Assembly: GCA_964645825.1 (NCBI GenBank)
Contig: CAZXZY010000001.1
Location: forward strand, 17,362 to 81,361
Length of the DNA stretch: 64,000 nt
From: an uncultured Gammaproteobacteria bacterium
GTDB lineage: Bacteria > Patescibacteriota > Patescibacteriia > UBA1558 > GWA2-36-10
Direction: 5' to 3'
The notes below the pieces were generated by a model. The model saw only the letters and a list, made by a program, of their open reading frames with translations. It ran no database searches and had not been told where the DNA came from. The position numbers and the translations under genes are program-made. Positions 24,057 through 51,387 of this stretch are shown one piece after another; positions within the stretch are counted from its first letter, which is position 1, and each line of letters begins with the position of its first letter.

Positions 24057-25160
24057 TTAAGCTTCTTTTAGTAAATATCTACCTTTTTCATCTCTAGCAA
24101 AACGATCTTTATTCATTAAGGCTAGGGCAATAGTGGTTTCTTTAATCAACCTCTTGTCTAGAACGGCAGCAATAATTTCTTTTTTGCTCATTGGGCGGCC
24201 AATTTCATTTAAAATTTCAGCAATTACATCAGCAACTACACCAGGTTTATAACCCCATTCTTTTAGGGCATAAATACCACGGCCCACTAAAACATATTTT
24301 TTATCTAAGATTAATTCATTGTGAATGGTAGCTGGATAAGCTTTACGTTGATCAAATTCCATCTTATTGATAGTTTCTGCGATCTCAGTAAAATGCAATG
24401 GCTTACTTTCTTTACGCAAGACAATATAGATTTTGTCATTCATGCGTTTTGGAGTGATACTTGGCCATTCGGCTAAACCCCACTCTTCGTAAGGATTATT
24501 TTCAATCTTTTTGGTAATGTCCAAAAAGTTAACTACCATTTTATCATTTAAATCATCATTGCTAGAAAAAAAGTTGGCTTGAGTGATTTTTTTGATCAAG
24601 TCTTCTAAAATAACTGTATCTTTATGCTCATGAATCAATTGACGAATGTCATCAATAACCTTATCAAAAAAGTCGATAGAAGCTTCTGGTGTTTTCCAAA
24701 AACTATAAACTTTTTTACTTTCTTTTACAAAATGAAAACGATGATTTAAGAGTTGGTTCAAGACAAAGTTAATAGCAGCTTTATTTTCAGCTGTTGCTCC
24801 AGGCACAACTAACAATTCTTTAATCAAGTTTTCTTCCGACATCATGCCACCATGCTCATTTAAGATAGCATTGGCAATATCTTCAATCTGTTTCAAGAAG
24901 TTTTGATCAAAGTTTTTGATAATTTTCTTTAGTGCACTGTTTTCAATTTGACGTACTCTTTCACGAGTAATACTGTATTGACGGCCAATTTCTTCTAGTG
25001 TTTTTTTCTTAAAGCCGGCCAATCCATGTCGCATCTTCAAAATCTCTTGCTCACGTTCAGATAATACCTCCAAAATACGCTCAACAGTTTGAGCGGGATT
25101 GAACTCTGACAAATGAGAGAGTTGTTGTGCAGTCATAACTTGGTCTAAAATAGAACCCAT
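24057..25160 (-). CDS. sigma-70 region-4 domain protein with winged-helix-like C-terminus (not a complete sigma factor)
   Basis: Residues 25-85, LSEREQEILKMRHGL...TLEEIGRQYSITRERVRQIENSALKKI, match region 4.1/4.2. There is no region 2 or 3. The C-terminal GRGIYALKEWGY...KKEIIAAVL resembles HARE-HTH. The gene is monocistronic, with its own promoter and terminator. Confidence 0.6.
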   Translation of the reverse strand: MGSILDQVMTAQQLSHLSEFNPAQTVERILEVLSEREQEILKMRHGLAGFKKKTLEEIGRQYSITRERVRQIENSALKKIIKNFDQNFLKQIEDIANAILNEHGGMMSEENLIKELLVVPGATAENKAAINFVLNQLLNHRFHFVKESKKVYSFWKTPEASIDFFDKVIDDIRQLIHEHKDTVILEDLIKKITQANFFSSNDDLNDKMVVNFLDITKKIENNPYEEWGLAEWPSITPKRMNDKIYIVLRKESKPLHFTEIAETINKMEFDQRKAYPATIHNELILDKKYVLVGRGIYALKEWGYKPGVVADVIAEILNEIGRPMSKKEIIAAVLDKRLIKETTIALALMNKDRFARDEKGRYLLKEA

Positions 25161-26174: not shown

Positions 26175-27842
26175 TTATTGATTATTCTTTTCTTTATTTA
26201 TACCAAATAGCCATAACTTATCCTCTATTTTACGTTTTACAATCATGCGTAAAAAAGTACGTGTCACAGTAATAGCAGAGAACATAGAGATGATAATACC
26301 AATCGCTAAAGTGATGGCAAACCCTTTGACAACAGATGTTCCAAACCAAGCTAAGATCAAACAAGTAATAATGGATGAAATATTTGAATCACGAATAGAT
26401 GTCCAAGCTCTTTGAAAACCATTTTCAACAGATGATGTTAAACTACGGCCTTCGTATAATTCTTCTTTTGTTCTTTCGAAGATAAGAATATTAGCATCTA
26501 CTGCCATACCAACCGACAAAATAAATCCAGCTACACCAGCTAAAGTCATGGTCACTGGGATCATTTCAAATAAAGCTAGTGTGACCAAAGAATACACAGC
26601 TAAAGCCAAAACCGCAATCAATCCTGGTAATCTATAATAAATTAGCATAAACAATGCTGCTGCAAGTAAGCCAATAATACCAGCTATTAAACTTTTTTCT
26701 ACTGAAATATCACCCAAAGAAGCACCAACTGTTTGCTGGCTGATTAATTCGATTGGTACTGGCAAAGCACCTGAATTTAAATCTCTAACCATATCTTTGG
26801 CTTCTTTTATACCAAAACTACCAGAAATAACAGCTCGCCCATCTTTGATTGCTTCTTGAACAACTGGCTCAGAAATTTTGAATCCATCCAAAAAAATAGC
26901 CACTGGTTTTCCAACATTAGCCTCAGTAATAGAAGCAAAGAGATCTTTTCCTTCGCTATCAAATTCTAATCCAATCAATGGAGCGTTGGTATTTTGATCA
27001 AATTCTAAGTTTGCTCGTTTAAGATGACGACCACCTAAATCAGTATTTTCCCAATTGATATTAGCATAATCAGCGTTTGGTTTTTGAATTAAGATGTGAG
27101 CGGCTCGTATTTCTGTCTCACCAGAATCATTTAAACGTTCTTCAAGTTTTTTTATAATATGATAACCAAATTGTGACTCAACTAGTTCTGGAGAAATTTC
27201 TCCAATTTTTAAATCTTCAAAAATAGCTTGTTCAAATTCTGGTACAAATTGTCCACGTGTTACCCATGGTAATTCACCACCATCAACGGACGAACCCAAA
27301 TCTTCACTAAATTCTTGAGCAAGCGCTGCAAAATCCTCTCCTGCTAAAACCTGTTCTAACAAACCTTGCGCTGTATCTTTTTCAGGATTTAATATTTCTT
27401 CTTCTGTTTCTTCAACAATTGGAGCGCCGACAGTTTTGAATTCTAATAAAGGTGTAGCGCCAATCATTTCAATAGCTTCACTTACATCTTGGACGCCAGC
27501 TAGCTCAACAATGATACGATAGTGATTTCCACTATAATTTGTTTGAATAGTTGGTTCAGATACACCATAAGCGTTTACACGACGCTCAATAACGTCTCTG
27601 ACGCCCTCCACGGACTCTTTTTTGTCTGCATCGGCAAAGTTATCAACGTTAGCTTCATAGACCAGATGAGTGCCGCCTTGTAAATCTAAACCTAAATGTA
27701 TTCTAAATTTAGAAAACCAGCCAGAATTACTTGGCCAGACCACAAGAGCGCTAAAAATTGCCAAAATCATGATACCAGCAAAAGCTAGACGTACTTGGTT
27801 TTTAGTAATAGCTACTTTTCGAGGTAATTTAGTTTTTGTCAT
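26175..27842 (-). CDS. secD: protein translocase subunit SecD with inserted parvulin-like PPIase domain
   Basis: SecD TM1 and periplasmic head. Residues about 160-255 read GEDFAALAQEFSEDLGSSVDGGELPWVTRGQFVPEFEQAIFEDLKIGEISPELVESQFGYHIIKK, a PpiC/parvulin signature. C-terminal 6-TM SecD core follows. Confidence 0.85.
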   Translation of the reverse strand: MTKTKLPRKVAITKNQVRLAFAGIMILAIFSALVVWPSNSGWFSKFRIHLGLDLQGGTHLVYEANVDNFADADKKESVEGVRDVIERRVNAYGVSEPTIQTNYSGNHYRIIVELAGVQDVSEAIEMIGATPLLEFKTVGAPIVEETEEEILNPEKDTAQGLLEQVLAGEDFAALAQEFSEDLGSSVDGGELPWVTRGQFVPEFEQAIFEDLKIGEISPELVESQFGYHIIKKLEERLNDSGETEIRAAHILIQKPNADYANINWENTDLGGRHLKRANLEFDQNTNAPLIGLEFDSEGKDLFASITEANVGKPVAIFLDGFKISEPVVQEAIKDGRAVISGSFGIKEAKDMVRDLNSGALPVPIELISQQTVGASLGDISVEKSLIAGIIGLLAAALFMLIYYRLPGLIAVLALAVYSLVTLALFEMIPVTMTLAGVAGFILSVGMAVDANILIFERTKEELYEGRSLTSSVENGFQRAWTSIRDSNISSIITCLILAWFGTSVVKGFAITLAIGIIISMFSAITVTRTFLRMIVKRKIEDKLWLFGINKEKNNQ

Positions 27843-28788: not shown

Positions 28789-29043
28789 TTAGACATGTGC
28801 CTGTTGACAGAGCTCATCTATCTCAGCATCCAAAACTGTCCATTCAGCTGCTGTTAGATGAACGGTGTCATCGATGTCTTCTACGGCTTCTGGCCCCTGC
28901 TCTTTCATGTTAGATGCGCCAAGTTTGCATAATCTCTCCCAGAATGCAATTCTGGCCGCATCATCTGGACTGACATTGATCAGTCTCTGCATTGCGTGCT
29001 CCATGAATTTGCTTACAGTACCTCCTACCATGTTTCTGTCCAT
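28789..29043 (-). CDS. hypothetical acidic 84-aa protein, compositionally atypical (about 47% GC)
   Basis: Intact ORF with its own terminator. GC content is far above the roughly 31% background. No recognised motif. Confidence 0.4.
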   Translation of the reverse strand: MDRNMVGGTVSKFMEHAMQRLINVSPDDAARIAFWERLCKLGASNMKEQGPEAVEDIDDTVHLTAAEWTVLDAEIDELCQQAHV

Positions 29044-29096
29044 TTTCTCGCCCTTTCGTTTTAGTGTGTCAAGAACTAAGATTTTTAATATTTACC

Positions 29097-29162
29097 ATCT
29101 TCTCTATGTTTTGTCAATCATAACTAAATTTAATTGATTGACTAAGTAAAGTAAATATTTTA
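29097..29162. promoter_or_regulatory. divergent promoter pair: TTGACT-17-TATAAT for tRNA-Gln on the plus strand, and TTGACA-17-TAAATA on the minus strand for the small ORF
   Basis: The two -35 boxes form the inverted repeat tgtcaatca-N16-tgattgaca. The plus-strand -10 TATAAT lies 8 nt before the tRNA 5' end. Confidence 0.45.
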
Positions 29163-29176
29163 TAATATTTTCACGT

Positions 29177-29250
29177 TCGGGGATCGTCTAATGGTAGGAC
29201 GACTGGTTCTGGTCCAGTTAATCGGGGTTCGACTCCCTGTCCCCGAGCCA
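29177..29250 (+). tRNA. tRNA-Gln (anticodon CUG), CCA encoded
   Basis: Manual cloverleaf: acceptor TCGGGGA/TCCCCGA, D-arm GTCT-AATGGTA-GGAC, anticodon arm ACTGG-TTCTGGT-CCAGT, T-arm CGGGG-TTCGACT-CCCTG, discriminator G, CCA. Confidence 0.8.
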
Positions 29251-29332
29251 AACGAACGAAGTGAGTGCAGGCTCGGGATTATAGATCCGAGTCGAAAACG
29301 AGGCTCCTAAGATGCTGTGCAATAGCGCAGCG

Positions 29333-29345
29333 CCCCGAGCCAAAC
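29333..29345 (+). repeat. 13-nt direct repeat of the tRNA-Gln 3' end (ccccgagccaaac), 92 bp downstream of the first copy at 29241-29253
   Basis: Exact 13-mer duplication. The intervening 79 bp contains two short hairpins. Confidence 0.6.
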
Positions 29346-29383
29346 AAAAAATCGCCTAACTGGCGACTTTTTTATTTTATATT

Positions 29384-29824
29384 TTAGTTAAACTTTTTAT
29401 CAATGCTGGCAACTTGTGTGTGCTCGCGCCTAACTTCTGAAATTTTTAATGAAGCAATAAGTAGCATTAATAATGTATGAAAAAAACCTAAAAACATAGC
29501 TGCAAAAGCAACTGAATCCATTGATATGTCAATAAGTAATGCAAATAAGATTGAACTGATTGTACTTAAAATTAATAAAACCACACCCAATGTGACAGAC
29601 ATGATTTTAAAATTGGTTGGCTTTTTTATTTTACGCTTTAAAAAGTTTAAAAGGAGATAATAAAAAAATAAGAATACTAAACCAAAAGTACCTACAATAA
29701 GTGATTCACCCTCAACACCGCGATCTGATAATACACCAAAAATAATAAAAGCTATCAAAATCCATATAACAAAGATCGTTATCTTTTCAGATCGTGATTT
29801 TTTTGTTTTGTTTAATTTGCTCAT
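29384..29824 (-). CDS. 4-TM membrane protein, unknown function
   Basis: Hydrophobic profile only. Confidence 0.4.
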   Translation of the reverse strand: MSKLNKTKKSRSEKITIFVIWILIAFIIFGVLSDRGVEGESLIVGTFGLVFLFFYYLLLNFLKRKIKKPTNFKIMSVTLGVVLLILSTISSILFALLIDISMDSVAFAAMFLGFFHTLLMLLIASLKISEVRREHTQVASIDKKFN

Positions 29825-29853: not shown

Positions 29854-31347
29854 TTACAAAACTTCTCCACCAAAAGTATCAACTGCATCCCCCACCTCTT
29901 CTTCTTGACTACCTTTGAATTTTTGTTGATTAGTTTTAAAATCTTCGTCTATTTTTAGCACTGTTTTGATTGAACGGCCTAAAATATTAGTTAAATTTTT
30001 ATTTATTTCTTCAGCTACACCTGGCTTATCTAATTGCTCAATATGAAATGGATATTCAAGGCCTACGGTAATAACTTCTGTTTGAATATCTAATGGATGA
30101 GCACTTTGAATGATGCCGGCCAGAGAAGAGTTCAATGGCTTCAAGGCGCTTACTAATTCAGTCCATTGTTTTTGTAAACTAACATAGTCTTTATTATCTA
30201 TAGCTAGAGTTTGAGCTGTTGTAGTGACAGTTGGCTCTGGACTAGCAATGTCAGCTGTAGCTAATAAAAATTCAATGCAAGCTAATTCTAATGGCAATTG
30301 ATCGATTACAACAGCTTGTTGGCTTTGAACTTTAGCTAATAGTATATTTAATAAACGGGAAATATCAGCTAAAGGAAAATTAGAGGCATGTTTTTTGATC
30401 ATTTCTACGAAATGTTCATCAAATTCTAGCTGAAAATCAGCTCCAATAACCTGATAAAGCATAATTTGACGAGTATATTCGATCAAATCCGAAGTCAAAC
30501 TATCTATATCTACACCTTCAGCTACTAATTTATTGATTTGATTTAATACAGCTGGCAGATTGTGCATCCGTAAGCCCTCAACTAAAGCGTCTATTTCTTG
30601 CCAATTATTACGTGGCAAAACTAGAGAAATCAAATCATCAGTCACTTGACCATGAGACAAAGCAATGATCTGTCCCAAAAGTGATTCAGCATCACGCAAA
30701 CATCCTTCTGAGCGACGAGCGATTTGAGTCAAAACTTTATCATCGATAGTTATTTTTTCCCATTCTATAATCTCACTTAACCTCTTTACTACATCAGCTA
30801 AAGGGATTTTTTTGAAATCAAAACGCTGACAACGAGAAATGATTGTTTCTGGTACTTTATGAATTTCAGTTGTAGCTAAAATAAATATCACTCGCTTTGG
30901 TGGCTCTTCAAGAGTTTTGAGTAGAGCATTAAAAGCGGATTTGGAAAGCATGTGGACTTCATCGATCACAAAAACTTTATAGCCGTTTTTGTTGAAAGGT
31001 GGAACTTGAGCATTGGCAATAATATTTTCTCTAACATTGTCCACTCCAGTATGCGAAGCGGCGTCAATTTCGATCACATCCAAAGTTTGATTATGCAAAA
31101 AGTTTTCACAAGCCTGGCAAACATTACATGGCTCACTAGAATCATCCTTACGATCAAGACAATTTAATGAGCGTGCAAAAAGACGGGCCAAGGTAGTCTT
31201 GCCCGTTCCTCTGGGACCTACAAATAAGTAAGCGTGAGCGATTTGCCCAGAAGTGATCTCACTCTGCAAAGTAACTTTAATTGGCCGTTGGCCAACTACT
31301 TCTTTGAAGAGCTTCGGTCGATATTTTCGGTAAATGACTTCAGACAT
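29854..31347 (-). CDS. dnaX: DNA polymerase III subunit gamma/tau
   Basis: YRPKLFKEVVGQ, Walker A GPRGTGKTT, zinc module CNVCQAC, SRC motif. Confidence 0.9.
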   Translation of the reverse strand: MSEVIYRKYRPKLFKEVVGQRPIKVTLQSEITSGQIAHAYLFVGPRGTGKTTLARLFARSLNCLDRKDDSSEPCNVCQACENFLHNQTLDVIEIDAASHTGVDNVRENIIANAQVPPFNKNGYKVFVIDEVHMLSKSAFNALLKTLEEPPKRVIFILATTEIHKVPETIISRCQRFDFKKIPLADVVKRLSEIIEWEKITIDDKVLTQIARRSEGCLRDAESLLGQIIALSHGQVTDDLISLVLPRNNWQEIDALVEGLRMHNLPAVLNQINKLVAEGVDIDSLTSDLIEYTRQIMLYQVIGADFQLEFDEHFVEMIKKHASNFPLADISRLLNILLAKVQSQQAVVIDQLPLELACIEFLLATADIASPEPTVTTTAQTLAIDNKDYVSLQKQWTELVSALKPLNSSLAGIIQSAHPLDIQTEVITVGLEYPFHIEQLDKPGVAEEINKNLTNILGRSIKTVLKIDEDFKTNQQKFKGSQEEEVGDAVDTFGGEVL

Positions 31348-32049: not shown

Positions 32050-34512
32050 TTAGACAATAATTCGCTTATTAATTTCGGCTTCTATTTGTTCTTTGGCGCG
32101 TCCATATTTCAACGCTGAAAGCTCTTTAATGGCTGCCGCTAACTCAAAATGACCTTTTTCTGCCATGATGGGGTTAAAATTAAAAGCTGGCGGAGCAGCG
32201 TTGTCTATCAATAATCTGGTATAACAAGTATATTTTGGCATATTAATAAGATCATATTCCGATACTATCGGTGCCATTTGTTTAGCAATAGTTTCTGCAT
32301 CTTCAACACCAATCCGGAAAGAAACAATTGTGCCGACATTGCCAAAGATAGCATCACGTACCCTGGTATCACCATTCTTGACTAGCTGTGCAATAAATTG
32401 ATGAGCCAAAATTAAATCAAGTCGATACTTACGTGCTTCAGATAAAATGACTGAGATACTCTCTGTAATAAAATTTTGGAACTCATCTATATAAAGATAG
32501 AAATCGCTTCTTTTATCTTCTTCTAAATTGACTCGGCTCATAGCGGCAAATAATAATTTACCGATAATAATCATGCCAAGTAAATTACTGTTCATTTCGC
32601 CTATCTTGCCTTTAGATAAATTTACTAAAATAATTTTATTACTGTCCATTGCTTCTCTAAAATTAAAAGCAGATTTAGCCTGAGCAATAATTGGTCTAAT
32701 CAAATCGTTAGATATAAATGGAGTTAGCTTACTAGTGATATAAGGAACCATATTAGCTAAAGAAGCTTCACCTCCTGCTTTTTGAGCCTCCTTTTCCCAA
32801 AATTCTTTGACAAATCTATTTTTAACAGTAGCTAATTTTGTTTTTCTAAATTCGGCATCGGCTAACACCCGAGGAATCTCTACTAAAGTGGCACCACTAA
32901 GCTTATCATCCATCACCAACAACATCGCATTACGCATATACTGCTCAAACATTGGGCCACCAGTAGCTTTTAGATCATAAAGTTTATCAAAAATGGCAAT
33001 CATTTCATTGATCACAAAAGTTTTTTGCTCTTCTGTATCATATTCGAGCATATTCATACCCAAAGGTCGCTCAGAATTAGCTGGGTCAAATAAAATCACG
33101 TCTTCTGCTCTCTCTTTTGGCACATGAGTTAAGGCAGTTTCAATCAAGTCACCATGTGGATCAACCACACAAACGCCCTTACCCGCTTTAATATCTTGGA
33201 TAATCAAACTTTCTTGAAAAACAGACTTACCAGTACCAGTTTGCCCAATAATATACATGTGTCTTCTTCTGTCCGCTGCCTTCATACGAATCAGGCTTTC
33301 TTTACCACGATAAGTATTTTTACCTAAAATTAAACCATCAGTCGGAATATTAGCTGGTGGAGAAGCTTTAACAGCGTCTAACCAATCAATATTTGGTGTA
33401 GAGGTAGTGGTTAATGGCAAATGAATAACACTAACCATCTCTTCGGCGTTCAAAATTAGACGGTCTACAGCCGAAAATTGTCGATAAATAAAATTTTGAA
33501 TTATTTGATCATTTTTCTTATAAGTTACAGCTTTGAAGCTATTGCCAAATTCATAAATATTATACTGGGTATAACTATTCAAAATATCTTGCAAAGCAGC
33601 TTCGGCTTTTGCCTCCTCTTTACTAGCTACTACTATACGAATATTTACATCAAGCCCTGGTTTAGAAGTTTTTTCTTCTATCATTTTACTAGCCTGCTGT
33701 TCCATAGCTGACATTTGATGTTGCTCTCCTCTATTTTGCATTACATTTTCCGCTGGACCTTTTTTATCGGTACTGATAATCTTCAATATAAATTCTATTA
33801 GCTTCCCTAAAATTTTTATCAAACCTGTGCCATGAACTTTATCGATGGCTGATTGAAAAGTCATACCATCATTAACATTTTTAATAATCTTCCTGGCTCG
33901 AGCATGCCACTTTTTAGGAGCAGAACGAAAAATATACTGCACTGCAGCTGCTTCATCTTCAGCTAATTTACTTAAAATATTAGTAATACTTTCTAGTGGA
34001 TCATTAGAAAAACTAGGGTATGTTTTTATAGGTAATGCAACATCGTTAGCAAAAATCAAATTACCAGCTTTAATAAAACTATTTGATTTGAAAATGTTAT
34101 AATCCTCTACATCTTCAAAATAAACCTTTGGATAAACAGCCTGTATTTGTTGAATAAAAAATTCTCTAAATTTATGAGGTACAGCTGCATAAAATTGGAT
34201 CATGCCTTTTTGGACAACTATTTCCAAAGAAAATGTATCCTCTCGTATTTTCATGCCCTTATCTGCCTTGAGTGCTGCTAAAGAAGTGAATAAGTGTTCA
34301 ATTTGTCCTAAGGTTTGAGTAATATAGTCTTGGCTTAATTCCTCTTTTTCGCCTTTAGTATACTTAGGAATTTTTATCAATAATATATCTAATTTAAGAT
34401 TTTTATTTACTTTTTTATTAAATTTTTTCAATACAAAAATAATAGACGTCGCAGCTATAGCTAGCGCTAACACAATGGCAATTAAAGTTGTCCAAGTGAT
34501 TTGAATTTCCAT
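32050..34512 (-). CDS. fused membrane-anchor + FtsK/HerA-superfamily ATPase (820 aa); paralog of the split pair at 20683-23916
   Basis: N-terminal TM, LPIKTYPSFSNDP segment, Walker A GQTGTGKS, VVDPHGDL, Walker B YLYIDEFQNF, ARKYRLDLILAHQ. About 60% identity to the split ATPase around the P-loop. Confidence 0.6.
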   Translation of the reverse strand: MEIQITWTTLIAIVLALAIAATSIIFVLKKFNKKVNKNLKLDILLIKIPKYTKGEKEELSQDYITQTLGQIEHLFTSLAALKADKGMKIREDTFSLEIVVQKGMIQFYAAVPHKFREFFIQQIQAVYPKVYFEDVEDYNIFKSNSFIKAGNLIFANDVALPIKTYPSFSNDPLESITNILSKLAEDEAAAVQYIFRSAPKKWHARARKIIKNVNDGMTFQSAIDKVHGTGLIKILGKLIEFILKIISTDKKGPAENVMQNRGEQHQMSAMEQQASKMIEEKTSKPGLDVNIRIVVASKEEAKAEAALQDILNSYTQYNIYEFGNSFKAVTYKKNDQIIQNFIYRQFSAVDRLILNAEEMVSVIHLPLTTTSTPNIDWLDAVKASPPANIPTDGLILGKNTYRGKESLIRMKAADRRRHMYIIGQTGTGKSVFQESLIIQDIKAGKGVCVVDPHGDLIETALTHVPKERAEDVILFDPANSERPLGMNMLEYDTEEQKTFVINEMIAIFDKLYDLKATGGPMFEQYMRNAMLLVMDDKLSGATLVEIPRVLADAEFRKTKLATVKNRFVKEFWEKEAQKAGGEASLANMVPYITSKLTPFISNDLIRPIIAQAKSAFNFREAMDSNKIILVNLSKGKIGEMNSNLLGMIIIGKLLFAAMSRVNLEEDKRSDFYLYIDEFQNFITESISVILSEARKYRLDLILAHQFIAQLVKNGDTRVRDAIFGNVGTIVSFRIGVEDAETIAKQMAPIVSEYDLINMPKYTCYTRLLIDNAAPPAFNFNPIMAEKGHFELAAAIKELSALKYGRAKEQIEAEINKRIIV

Positions 34513-45045: not shown

Positions 45046-45403
45046 AAGCCCAAATTAACCTCATAAGCCGAATTCTGTCCTCAAAAGAGGGATGATCATC
45101 TATCTAGGACTACTATTGCTAATAGCCTCAAGCAATCTACCCGCCCCCTAAGGGGCCTATTTGATTTTGCACCAGATAAAGTTTGCCTCTTCTAGCCTGT
45201 CACCAAGCTAACGGGTTAGCTAATTATCTAACCATTTCACCCTTATTCTGCAAGCAGAAAGGAATATTTTCTGTTGTACTTGTTCTGACCGATAAATCAC
45301 TTTATCAGCCGGTTGGCGTTACCAACTATCTTTTTATTGGTGTTCGGACTTTATCCTCTCCAAACATGCTTTGGAGCGATCATCTCGGTTAATTTAAGCT
45401 TTC
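45046..45403 (-). ncRNA. rnpB: RNase P RNA, bacterial type A, compact P12
   Basis: On the minus strand: P1 aagcuuaaauuaacc/gguuaauuugggcuu, P3 cuccaaa-gcaug-uuuggag, P4 AGGAUAAAGUCCGAAC pairing with GACAGAAUUCGGCUUAUG (GG/CC to AA/UU covariation), AAGGGUGAAAUGGU, CAAAUAGG, GGGUAGAUUGCUUGAGGC...CCUAGAUAGAUGA. Confidence 0.8.
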
Positions 45404-45679: not shown

Positions 45680-46693
45680 TTATTTTGCAGACAAGATACT
45701 GCGCTTATAAGATTCTAAATTTTCTAAAGCAATACCTGTGCCCCGAGCTACGCACAATAATGAATCATCGGCTGTATAGGCCGGCACACCAGTGGCTTGA
45801 GCCAAAAGCTTATCCATATTACGTAACAATGAGGTGCCACCAGACAAAACCATACCTTTATCCATAATATCGGCTGATAACTCCGGTGGAGTTTGATACA
45901 AAACTGATTTAACAGCTGAAATCAAACCTTGTAGTTCATTTTGCAGAGCCTCTGTCACATCATCAGAGCTGACATTGATTGTGCGAGGTAAGCCAGTAAT
46001 CATGTCACGGCCTTTGACATCCATAAACAATTTTTCATCTTTGTCTAAAAATTGAGCTGAACCAATTTTAATCTTCACTTCTTCAGCGGTTCTCTCACCA
46101 ATCGCTAAATTATATTTCTTTTTTATAAACTCACCAATCGCAGCATCATATTTATTTCCACCAATTTTGACAGAAGTATTAGCTACAATGCCACCCAAAG
46201 AAATAACAGCAATTTCAGATGTACCACCGCCCATATCAACGATCATATGACCAGAAGCTGAACCAATGGGGATATCTGCCCCAATAGCTGCCGCAATCGG
46301 CTCACGGATGATATAGGCTGCCTTGGCGCCAGCATTCAGTGTAGCATCAATGACTGCTCTTCTTTCGGTAGAGGTAATGCCAGCCGGTACAGCAATCATC
46401 ACTTCGGGACGAAATATTTTCATCCCACCAACAGCTTTATTAATAAAATAACGTAACATACTCTCGGTAGTTCTATAATCAGCGATCACGCCATCTTTTA
46501 ATGGCCGAGATGCCACAATAGAATCGGGCGTACGCCCAATCATATCTTTAGCCTCATCTCCAACTGCCATAACTTTTTTATCAAAAACAGAAATTGCCAC
46601 TACACTAGGCTCATTGATAACAATCCCTCGTTTAGGAATATAAACGAGAGTGTATGCGGTGCCTAGATCAATGCCAATTTTCTTTATAAACAT
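45680..46693 (-). CDS. mreB: rod-shape protein MreB (paralog 2)
   Basis: Actin-fold phosphate motifs GIDLGTAYT and DMGGGTSE. Confidence 0.9.
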   Translation of the reverse strand: MFIKKIGIDLGTAYTLVYIPKRGIVINEPSVVAISVFDKKVMAVGDEAKDMIGRTPDSIVASRPLKDGVIADYRTTESMLRYFINKAVGGMKIFRPEVMIAVPAGITSTERRAVIDATLNAGAKAAYIIREPIAAAIGADIPIGSASGHMIVDMGGGTSEIAVISLGGIVANTSVKIGGNKYDAAIGEFIKKKYNLAIGERTAEEVKIKIGSAQFLDKDEKLFMDVKGRDMITGLPRTINVSSDDVTEALQNELQGLISAVKSVLYQTPPELSADIMDKGMVLSGGTSLLRNMDKLLAQATGVPAYTADDSLLCVARGTGIALENLESYKRSILSAK

Positions 46694-50334: not shown

Positions 50335-51387
50335 TTATGTTAAACCTAAATCTTTAGTTGATGGTAAAAGTATTTCTTTTAAATTGTCTAAATCATCCAA
50401 AACTTTTCCAGTGCCTCTAACCACGGCTGTTAGTGGATCGTCAGCAATGTGAACTGGCATTTTTGTTTCTTGATGAATCAAAGTATCTATACCTTTTAAC
50501 AAGGCTCCGCCACCGGTCAAAACCATTCCCTTTTCATAAAGGTCAGCTACTAATTCTGGCGGTGTGCTTTCAATAGTGGTTTTAATATTTTCGACGATAA
50601 GTTTGATCGGTTTTGCAATAGCTTCTCTAATATTTGCATCAGTAATTGTTATTTCTTTTGGTAAGCCAGTTAATAAATCTCGACCACGCATAGTAGCCTC
50701 TTCTGGTTTTTCTAATGGTAAAACTGAAGCAATTTGAAATTTAATCTTTTCAGCTGTACGTTCACCCAATAAAATATTAAATTTATCACGAGCATATTGA
50801 ACAATAGCTTCGTTTAGTTTATCACCAGCTAGCTTCAAGGACTTCCAAGAAACTACACCACCTAAAGATATGACAGCAATTTCAGTTGTACCGCCGCCAA
50901 TATCTACTACCATGCTAGCCATAGCTTCCTGGATAGGTAATCCAGCTCCAATAGCTGCTGCCACCGGTTCTTCAATCAAATATATTTCAGAAGCGCCAGC
51001 GCCCATCACAGAATCTTCAACCGCTTTTCTTTCTACTTCTGTGACATCTAGTGGAATAGCGACCATCACTCGAGGGCGAGGGACAAAAGTCATCGATTCA
51101 CGATGAACTTTATTGATAAAATGTTTGATCATTTTTTCACTAACTTCAAAGTCAGAAATAACTCCATCAATCAGTGGACGAATAACACTAATATGTTGGG
51201 GAGTTTTTCCTAACATAATTTTAGCATCATCACCAACAGCTACAATTTTATCAGTACGCGTATTAATAGCAACCACACTAGGCTCATTGATCACAATGCC
51301 TTGGTCTTTTACATAAACCAAAGTATTAGCCGTACCTAAGTCGATTCCCATATCTTTAGAAAATTGTCTGAATATGTTTTTAAACAT
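50335..51387 (-). CDS. mreB: rod-shape protein MreB (paralog 1)
   Basis: GIDLGTANT, DIGGGTTE. Confidence 0.9.
   Translation of the reverse strand: MFKNIFRQFSKDMGIDLGTANTLVYVKDQGIVINEPSVVAINTRTDKIVAVGDDAKIMLGKTPQHISVIRPLIDGVISDFEVSEKMIKHFINKVHRESMTFVPRPRVMVAIPLDVTEVERKAVEDSVMGAGASEIYLIEEPVAAAIGAGLPIQEAMASMVVDIGGGTTEIAVISLGGVVSWKSLKLAGDKLNEAIVQYARDKFNILLGERTAEKIKFQIASVLPLEKPEEATMRGRDLLTGLPKEITITDANIREAIAKPIKLIVENIKTTIESTPPELVADLYEKGMVLTGGGALLKGIDTLIHQETKMPVHIADDPLTAVVRGTGKVLDDLDNLKEILLPSTKDLGLT

Follow-up and report, generated by a model that had tools for sequence, protein, structure and literature searches.

We examined a 64,000-nt stretch of DNA (assembly GCA_964645825.1, contig CAZXZY010000001.1, positions 17,362-81,361 of the forward strand; hereafter the window, with coordinates counted from its first base), focusing on the tRNA-Gln gene that it carries and on the 95 nt that follow this gene. 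By its DnaX protein (29854-31347, - strand), the window, which is part of a bacterial chromosome, belongs to Patescibacteria, close to Komeilibacteria and Parcubacteria metagenome-assembled genomes. It carries housekeeping genes, encoded nearly all on the - strand (48 of the 49 open reading frames (ORFs) of at least 150 aa), and the tRNA-Gln is the lone + strand feature. It is also the sole tRNA that ARAGORN called in the 64 kb, with the anticodon CTG and an encoded CCA. A predicted promoter, the only + strand promoter-like site before the downstream element, stops 10 nt short of the tRNA, and a terminator-like hairpin follows the element. Since promoter and terminator flank both the tRNA and the 95-nt element, the two form one predicted transcription unit. 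Relatives of this locus were collected from species-representative genomes and from contigs encoding DnaX homologues, and are labelled L0xx or L1xx. The features of the predicted unit are as follows:

29138-29166, + strand: predicted sigma-70-type promoter, TTGACT-17 nt-TATAAT, agreeing with 11 of 12 consensus positions (a consensus match only)
29177-29250, + strand: tRNA-Gln(CUG), 74 nt, with a U1-A72 pair and discriminator G; called by ARAGORN and by RF00005 (57.4 bits), with all cloverleaf pairs canonical
29241-29253, + strand: first copy of the 13-mer CCCCGAGCCAAAC (exact match)
29251-29269, + strand: trailer module T (AACGAACGAAGTGAGTGCA), conserved, and found in relatives after the tRNA or after the last unit of an array (L007, L016, L089, L106)
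29270-29277, + strand: 5' strand of helix 1, GGCTCGGG, from the fold and the alignment fold
29289-29306, + strand: hairpin 1, GAGTC-GAAAACGA-GGCTC, from the fold, at a variable position
29307-29313, + strand: single-stranded linker CTAAGAT, of which AAGAT is invariant in seven lineages
29314-29331, + strand: hairpin 2, GCTGTGC-AATA-GCGCAGC, 7 bp, the conserved core of the family
29333-29345, + strand: second copy of CCCCGAGCCAAAC, in which 29334-29341 is the 3' strand of helix 1; the unit ends in ...GCCA at 29339-29342
29352-29376, + strand: intrinsic-terminator-like hairpin, TCGCC-TAACT-GGCGA followed by a T run, predicted from sequence

The 13-mer is made up of the final 10 nt of the tRNA (the 3' strand of the acceptor stem, the discriminator G and the CCA) plus 3 nt. 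It has exactly two matches in the window, starting 92 nt apart at 29241 and 29333, and none further when one mismatch is allowed; shuffled sequences gave an expected count of 0.02, and two matches were seen in 0 of 100 shuffles. The initial annotation had described such a direct repeat of the 3' end of a tRNA-Gln(CUG) around a 79-bp spacer, and its coordinates and anatomy were borne out. The possibility that the 13-mer is a generic dispersed repeat does not hold within the window, where these are the only two copies. The 95 nt past the tRNA fold with a minimum free energy of -35.3 kcal/mol (z = -3.9 against shuffles, none of which equalled the fold). The fold reproduced the proposed long-range stem GGCUCGGG/CCCGAGCC, in which 8 bp (29270-77 with 29334-41), here called helix 1, close around two hairpins. 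The spacer is, as had also been proposed, not a canonical cloverleaf: ARAGORN called one Gln tRNA, with the expected anticodon, and no second, and neither did the Rfam tRNA model call a second at E<=10. A functional second tRNA gene was rejected, as both programs detected no cloverleaf of D, anticodon and T arms. When positions 29000-29500 were searched with all Rfam families (gathering score and E<=10), only the tRNA was significant; the sub-threshold matches (AaHKsRNA82, rli60, STnc230 and others) align to the terminator and reflect chance.

The descent of the 95-nt element can be read from one of the relatives, L008, in which a second tRNA-Gln sequence starts 16 nt after the tRNA and is broken by three insertions. 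The D loop holds one of 41 nt and the T loop one of 26 nt, with sequence common to both; the third, of 23 nt, lies at the junction of the 3' strand of the T stem with the 3' strand of the acceptor stem (positions 65/66). Once the insertions are removed, the L008 copy matches the tRNA-Gln of the window from position 6 to the CCA with few mismatches; its first five bases differ. The 23-nt insertion is a homologue of hairpin 2, and hairpin 2 of the window with its flanking bases corresponds to it. The window unit keeps three pieces of the tRNA copy: UCGGG (29273-77), from the 5' strand of the acceptor stem; CTCCTA (29304-29309), the 3' strand of the T stem, which overlaps the start of the linker and whose T-arm homology is recognized by way of L008; and CCCCGAGCCA, which is the acceptor 3' strand, the discriminator and the CCA. 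The D, anticodon and T arms have given way to a single variable hairpin. The 5' strand of helix 1 is the vestigial acceptor strand UCGGG with a GGC extension, and is complementary to both copies of CCCGAGCC. Judged by these correspondences, the 95-nt element is a heavily remodelled vestige of a second tRNA-Gln copy, and a deletion between two related L008-type insertions is a plausible route to the form seen in the window. Of the earlier suggestion of a decayed tandem tRNA, the origin stands, given that the L008 copy is homologous to tRNA-Gln, and the word "decayed" understates an element that is maintained across sub-clades and has a covarying hairpin.

The L008 copy (L008:7958-8136; also in L085 and L087) has three short hairpin insertions and is without the 5' acceptor strand, a pattern reminiscent of the multi-intron tRNAs of archaea. 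Small palindromic sequences have probably invaded a pseudogene here; more speculatively, the three insertions might be removable intervening sequences, as in the archaeal genes. ARAGORN, run with a lowered threshold on a partly spliced version of the copy, called a tRNA, a weak result on which we do not rely.

Homologues of the unit lie behind tRNA-Gln in 11 of ~24 related lineages, every one on the strand of the tRNA (L001/L089, L002, L004/L100, L006, L008, L011, L016, L103, L106 and L109 carry units). Eight of the 11 arrays (window, L002, L006, L008, L011, L016, L089 and L109) have a clear terminator behind their last unit. The family shares the core ...AAGAT-GCUGnnC-AAUR-GnnCAGC-G-CCCCGAGCCA, and its units fall into three types that are modular and turn over between close relatives. 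Type A, to which the window unit belongs, consists of the trailer, the 5' strand of the closing helix, the variable hairpin 1, the conserved hairpin 2 and the tail; type B has a different hairpin, with the tail present or not; and type C (46-51 nt) has a shortened hairpin followed by the tail. Hairpin 1 is missing in L006, and an unrelated 8-bp hairpin takes its place in L004. Genomes carry between zero and two units: two in L089, L011, L006 and L109, one in the window, and none in L093, L107 and others. In L089, the closest relative (DnaX identity 84%), the tRNA is followed by a unit with a type B start, hairpin 2 and tail, then by a type C unit and finally by the trailer and terminator, so that this array holds three copies of CCCCGAGCCA. 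Type A units are present in five host sub-clades and in L011, and every sub-clade has a close relative without type A. Such a spread fits an old origin with repeated loss.

The units are confined to this position. A covariance model of six type A units found exactly one copy per genome, only behind tRNA-Gln, in ~500 kb of related DNA, and nothing else in the 64-kb window beyond the unit at the locus. A metagenome scan for the hairpin pattern, with the acceptor bases left free, returned eight matches, six of them chance occurrences in coding DNA and two of them copies of the L008 locus, and revealed no new lineages.

The type A units allowed us to compare the rate of change of the element with that of neighbouring sequence, albeit in a small sample (n=7 lineages for identity, covariation and trees alike). 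DnaX identity among the seven is 63-79%. At the four-fold degenerate sites of their dnaX genes the identity is 34-58% (mean 43%); with 33% expected at random, these sites are close to saturation. Over the same lineages the unit, with the tail copy left out, has a mean identity of 74%; the hairpin-2 module is 78-96% identical and the tRNA 86-99%. Hairpin 2 is paired in 100% of cells of the seven-lineage alignment, and at two of its seven pairs both partners change (GC/AU/UA/UG and GC/AU/GU). Its covariation score of 0.179 exceeds that of shuffled alignments (0.078 +/- 0.020; 0 of 500 reach it) and of slid controls (at most 0.052). The U.G and G.U wobbles of hairpin 2 allow pairing on the tRNA-sense strand only, which argues for a structure in RNA (or in the single-stranded sense strand) and not for a palindrome of double-stranded DNA. 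Hairpin 1 is 89% paired, with one pair that changes on both sides. Comparative sequence evidence thus indicates that the unit, which evolves more slowly than the neutral rate, is not neutral debris and is maintained by selection at the RNA level.

These measurements bear directly on the possibility that the unit is a non-functional pseudogene, that is, a tandem tRNA-Gln duplicate in neutral decay whose conservation reflects gene conversion and recent duplication. Its derivation from tRNA is in keeping with this idea, as are its patchy distribution and fast turnover (the window, L089 and L093 are all unlike), the decay of helix 1 in L002 and L004, and the loss or exchange of hairpin 1 in some lineages. 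However, hairpin 2 and AAGAT have no counterpart in the tRNA and are nonetheless conserved far above four-fold degenerate dnaX sites, so that gene conversion can account for the tail copy only. The substitutions that preserve hairpin 2 are compensatory and strand-specific, and the presence of type A in five sub-clades and L011 points to an old origin. We therefore consider the pseudogene explanation unlikely.

A direct repeat of a tRNA 3' end downstream of the intact tRNA, here the 13-mer repeated at a distance of 92 nt, is also what the attL/attR duplications of integrating elements look like. Williams is said to have defined, in 2002, sublocation classes of tRNA-targeting integrases. The initial annotation had taken the repeat as a possible att footprint of a tyrosine-recombinase element or the scar of an excised island. 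On such a view, an element would have integrated at the 3' end of tRNA-Gln, duplicated the att core and been lost, leaving attL (the tRNA), a residue and attR (the second 13-mer). In relatives, the interval from dnaX to the methyltransferase/SecD genes is a gene-flux hot spot that holds abhydrolase, Gmad2, NUDIX, VanY, patatin, cupredoxin or pilin genes, and in L103 and L106 a short unit sits precisely between the CCA and the usual trailer, both of which would suit such a history. So would a locus in a different Patescibacteria lineage, L027, in which a ~32-nt direct repeat (the last 15 nt of tRNA-Gln(CUG) and 17 nt of trailer) surrounds a 1.5-kb cassette (L027:7092-8736) whose two genes, an unknown ORF of 195 aa and one for an NYN-domain protein of 181 aa, include no integrase. 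L027 illustrates that att-style events at tRNA-Gln take place in this phylum.

The locus in the window nevertheless departs from such duplications on several counts. No tyrosine or serine recombinase was present among the 30 window ORFs screened, which comprise housekeeping genes and five ORFs without a Pfam match. The motif had 0 matches in 2.9 M viral contigs and none in phage and plasmid collections (blastn). No member of the clade had an island between the repeats, or a distant copy of the tail, within the 6-kb flanks that were searched, and the units are always at most 100 nt long. The sequence between the copies is neither foreign nor neutral: it is homologous to tRNA-Gln, retains 74% identity against 43% at the near-saturated neutral sites of its hosts, and contains an RNA hairpin that covaries. 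In L008, moreover, the downstream tail is CCCCGAGCCA and the tail of the resident tRNA is CCCGAAGCCA, so that the copy did not arise as an att core duplicated from that tRNA. An integration scar is thus not supported at this locus, and we regard it as very improbable.

The modularity of the arrays, in which types A, B and C occur in varying order and in 0-2 copies, raises the further possibility of a miniature mobile cassette: non-autonomous units would target the CCA end of tRNA-Gln for insertion, depend on mobilisation in trans and pass horizontally between hosts. The exact, insertion-like placement of the units of L103 and L106 would agree with it, and horizontal spread would explain why units resemble each other between distant hosts and why their similarity is uncorrelated with that of the hosts. 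Against mobility, the unit was found nowhere but behind tRNA-Gln in the ~500 kb searched, and the metagenome scan added only the L008-type locus. The units have no terminal inverted repeats with a target-site duplication, no candidate for a mobilising enzyme lies nearby, and their continuity with the tRNA-Gln sequence points to duplication in place. Such a cassette has, in our judgement, a very small chance of being the correct explanation.

Three other candidates were tried and rejected. A miniature inverted-repeat transposable element with GGCTCGGG/CCCGAGCC as its terminal inverted repeats has no target-site duplication, and its 3' "repeat" is the tRNA tail. A small ORF that starts at the ATG at 29312, with the product MLCNSAAPRAKQKIA, has no ribosome-binding site, and its variable positions are non-synonymous and covary in compensating pairs. 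An integron attC site, IS200/IS605 ends and a retroviral-style primer-binding site each lack their defining sequence feature here.

The closest known analogue, by its architecture, is the RtT element of the Escherichia coli tyrT operon, which also served as our positive control. In the region examined (NC_000913.3:1286000-1288500, tyrT/tyrV), the 19-nt 3' end of tRNA-Tyr occurs six times, in tyrT and tyrV and at the 3' ends of four RtT units, and the RtT model RF00391 recovered these units at 133-137 bits with a 178-bp spacing. The RtT consensus structure has a closing helix of GGGGAAGGAU with the tRNA-derived AUCCUUCCCC, internal hairpins inside it and a single-stranded CACCACCA. RtT is a T-arm-to-CCA copy of a tRNA with a large insertion, the same design as that of the Patescibacteria units. 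Like RtT, the window unit lies in the 3' trailer of a tRNA and on the same strand, and its 3' end copies the 3' terminus of its own tRNA including the CCA, as the 19 nt do in E. coli. Both are partial tRNA copies with inserted sequence, in which a closing helix with a tRNA-derived 3' strand encloses internal hairpins and leaves a single-stranded CCA tail, and both families occur as tandem units in variable copy number.

The two differ in that they share no sequence or covariance-model similarity: RF00391 gave no match in the window at its gathering score (45 bits) nor at E<=10, which indicates two families of one kind of element. The units described here accompany tRNA-Gln and not tRNA-Tyr, and in another phylum; they measure 46-100 nt and not 178 nt; the window family keeps both acceptor strands, whereas RtT keeps the T arm; there are several module types, with a single unit in the window; and they have no embedded small ORF like the tpr of RtT. 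One repeat unit of the tyrT operon is described in a passage of PMC3318445 (citing Bosl & Kersten 1991) as encoding rttR. A 2024 preprint reports a role of rtT RNA in tyrT transcript processing and a possible one in the stringent response (bioRxiv 10.1101/2024.07.17.603846).

Two more distant lineages hold structures of their own behind tRNA-Gln. L024 (9316-9432) has 82-nt tandem units made of a trailer, a T arm with a 28-nt T-loop hairpin, an acceptor 3' strand and a CCA, a design very similar to that of RtT. In L022 (7944-8140), ~150 nt of inserted sequence interrupt a partial tRNA copy; the first tRNA of this locus is without an encoded CCA and the downstream copy has one. Both are independent analogues of the units.

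Other known RNAs share parts of this arrangement. Plant mitochondrial t-elements, the mascRNA of MALAT1 and the separation of polycistronic bacterial tRNAs by RNase P are all instances of tRNA-like processing signals, in which the elements keep a T arm or elbow that RNase P recognises. As modelled, the window unit would resemble them in being a non-decoding, acceptor-like helix behind another RNA that could be cut by RNase P or 3' enzymes; it differs in that its T loop is replaced by a tetraloop hairpin and in that many relatives do without the element. With the mascRNA model RF01684, the sole match in the window lay inside the tRNA and was at chance level. The 3'ETS-leuZ RNA, a base-pairing sponge released from the 3' external transcribed spacer of a tRNA, is likewise a functional RNA from a tRNA 3' spacer, but it is a sponge and is not tRNA-derived.

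On balance we think it likely that the 95 nt after tRNA-Gln(CUG) are a conserved, remodelled tRNA-Gln copy that acts as an RtT-like, co-transcribed, tRNA-like trailer RNA. The observations that carry this reading are its sequence anatomy and tRNA descent, a conservation that exceeds the neutral rate, covariation specific to the tRNA strand, confinement to one locus and the match to the RtT architecture. Transcription, processing and any function in trans we infer, largely by analogy with RtT. The unit would be co-transcribed with tRNA-Gln. Its two retained acceptor strands form the 8-bp closing helix, the conserved 7-bp hairpin is inserted at what was the junction of the T stem and the acceptor stem of the tRNA copy, and the unit ends in the ...CCCCGAGCCA tail of the tRNA. 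With an acceptor-like helix and a GCCA tail, it could be a substrate of tRNA end-processing enzymes: RNase P would cut 5' of U29273, parting the 19-nt trailer of the tRNA from the terminator hairpin, and 3' exonucleases would trim back to the helix, yielding a stable RNA of ~70 nt. A full-length class A bacterial RNase P RNA is encoded in the window itself (45048-45395, - strand; 219.5 bits in Rfam), and the enzyme would act on the tRNA and possibly on the trailer unit.

Several observations weigh against this interpretation. Helix 1 is paired in 86% of cells, changes on one side only and does not covary, which is expected given that its 3' strand is the invariant tail copy, and in L002 and L004 it is eroded and partly broken. 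In a nearest-neighbour model of the whole precursor, the 5' strand of helix 1 favours the 3' strand of the tRNA's own acceptor stem (P ~0.93), and the strand-swapped fold reaches -77.6 against -71.1 kcal/mol; tertiary contacts of the tRNA lie outside this model, so that these values serve only as a flag. The four acceptor strands would accordingly be able to swap partners, and, taken at face value, the unit would hinder and not aid the folding of the tRNA. In addition, around half of the relatives lack the unit, among them the next-closest one, L093 (DnaX 76%, global alignment), and the closest, L089, has a rearranged unit without the 5' strand of helix 1. Any function must then be dispensable, and helix 1 is not universally kept. 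Finally, similarity between units does not track that between DnaX proteins (rho 0.17, n.s., seven sequences), which leaves room for horizontal exchange or gene conversion.

Taking these points together with the conservation, the units are selected at the RNA level, yet dispensable and easily lost. Loss probably proceeds by recombination between the flanking direct repeats, which would give a clean deletion. What a trailer RNA of this kind might do is a matter of lesser confidence. We put forward, as a suggestion that we ourselves rate as quite unlikely, that the hairpin + CCCCGAGCCA modules constitute an undescribed class of mimics of the tRNA-Gln acceptor end in Patescibacteria, released as trans-acting small RNAs. 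Such mimics might act as decoys or titrators of a factor that recognizes the acceptor end of tRNA-Gln, for example a component of the non-discriminating GluRS/GatCAB system, the CCA-adding enzyme or an acceptor-targeting toxin. Alternatively, the modelled swapping of partners with the acceptor strands of the tRNA could tune the maturation of tRNA-Gln.

The repeat of a tRNA 3' end is usually read as the footprint of an integration, and here it marks a conserved, structured trailer RNA derived from the tRNA. Accordingly, such units in genomes of the candidate phyla radiation (CPR) should not be annotated as att sites nor taken as evidence of excised islands. The locus represents a second, independent case of the RtT architecture, found in a phylum whose genomes are minimal and from which few non-coding RNAs have been described. 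It strengthens the notion that processed small RNAs arise recurrently from partial tRNA copies in trailers. The family is absent from Rfam and is a candidate new RNA family for Rfam-style curation.

Additional features of the locus and its surroundings were recorded along the way. The 3' end of dnaX adjoins tRNA-Gln(CUG) in 27 of 29 Patescibacteria loci, down to a DnaX identity of ~40%. The orientation of the tRNA relative to dnaX varies among lineages, with opposite strands in the window, L089, L093, L016, L097 and L098, and the gene content beside the locus is highly variable. The trailer motif GAACGnAGTGAGCGCAG also occurs inverted before or after units (L002:6142-6170, L011:7695-7730 and L089:6500-6530, - strand); one example is CTGCGCTCA in L002, the complement of TGAGCGCAG. 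These inverted motifs could possibly pair over a long range around the unit, or be substrates for the inversions observed at the locus.

Upstream of dnaX, an 820-aa protein (32050-34512, - strand) resembles type IV secretion coupling proteins (TrwB/VirD4/TraG). Its gene is syntenic in all relatives for which upstream genes were listed, and pilin genes of a type IV secretion system lie downstream of the tRNA in several relatives; these genes appear to belong to a core chromosomal system rather than to a conjugative element. The window's SecD (26175-27842, - strand) carries a parvulin-type peptidyl-prolyl isomerase (Rotamase) domain between its N-terminal P1 segment and the P1 head, a combination also found in relatives L089 and L095 and in the P0002 contig. 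In a 367-aa protein (24057-25160, - strand), sigma-70 region 4 at the N terminus is unusually combined with a HARE-HTH domain close to the C-terminal end. The window also encodes MreC and two MreB paralogues (45680-46693 and 50335-51387).

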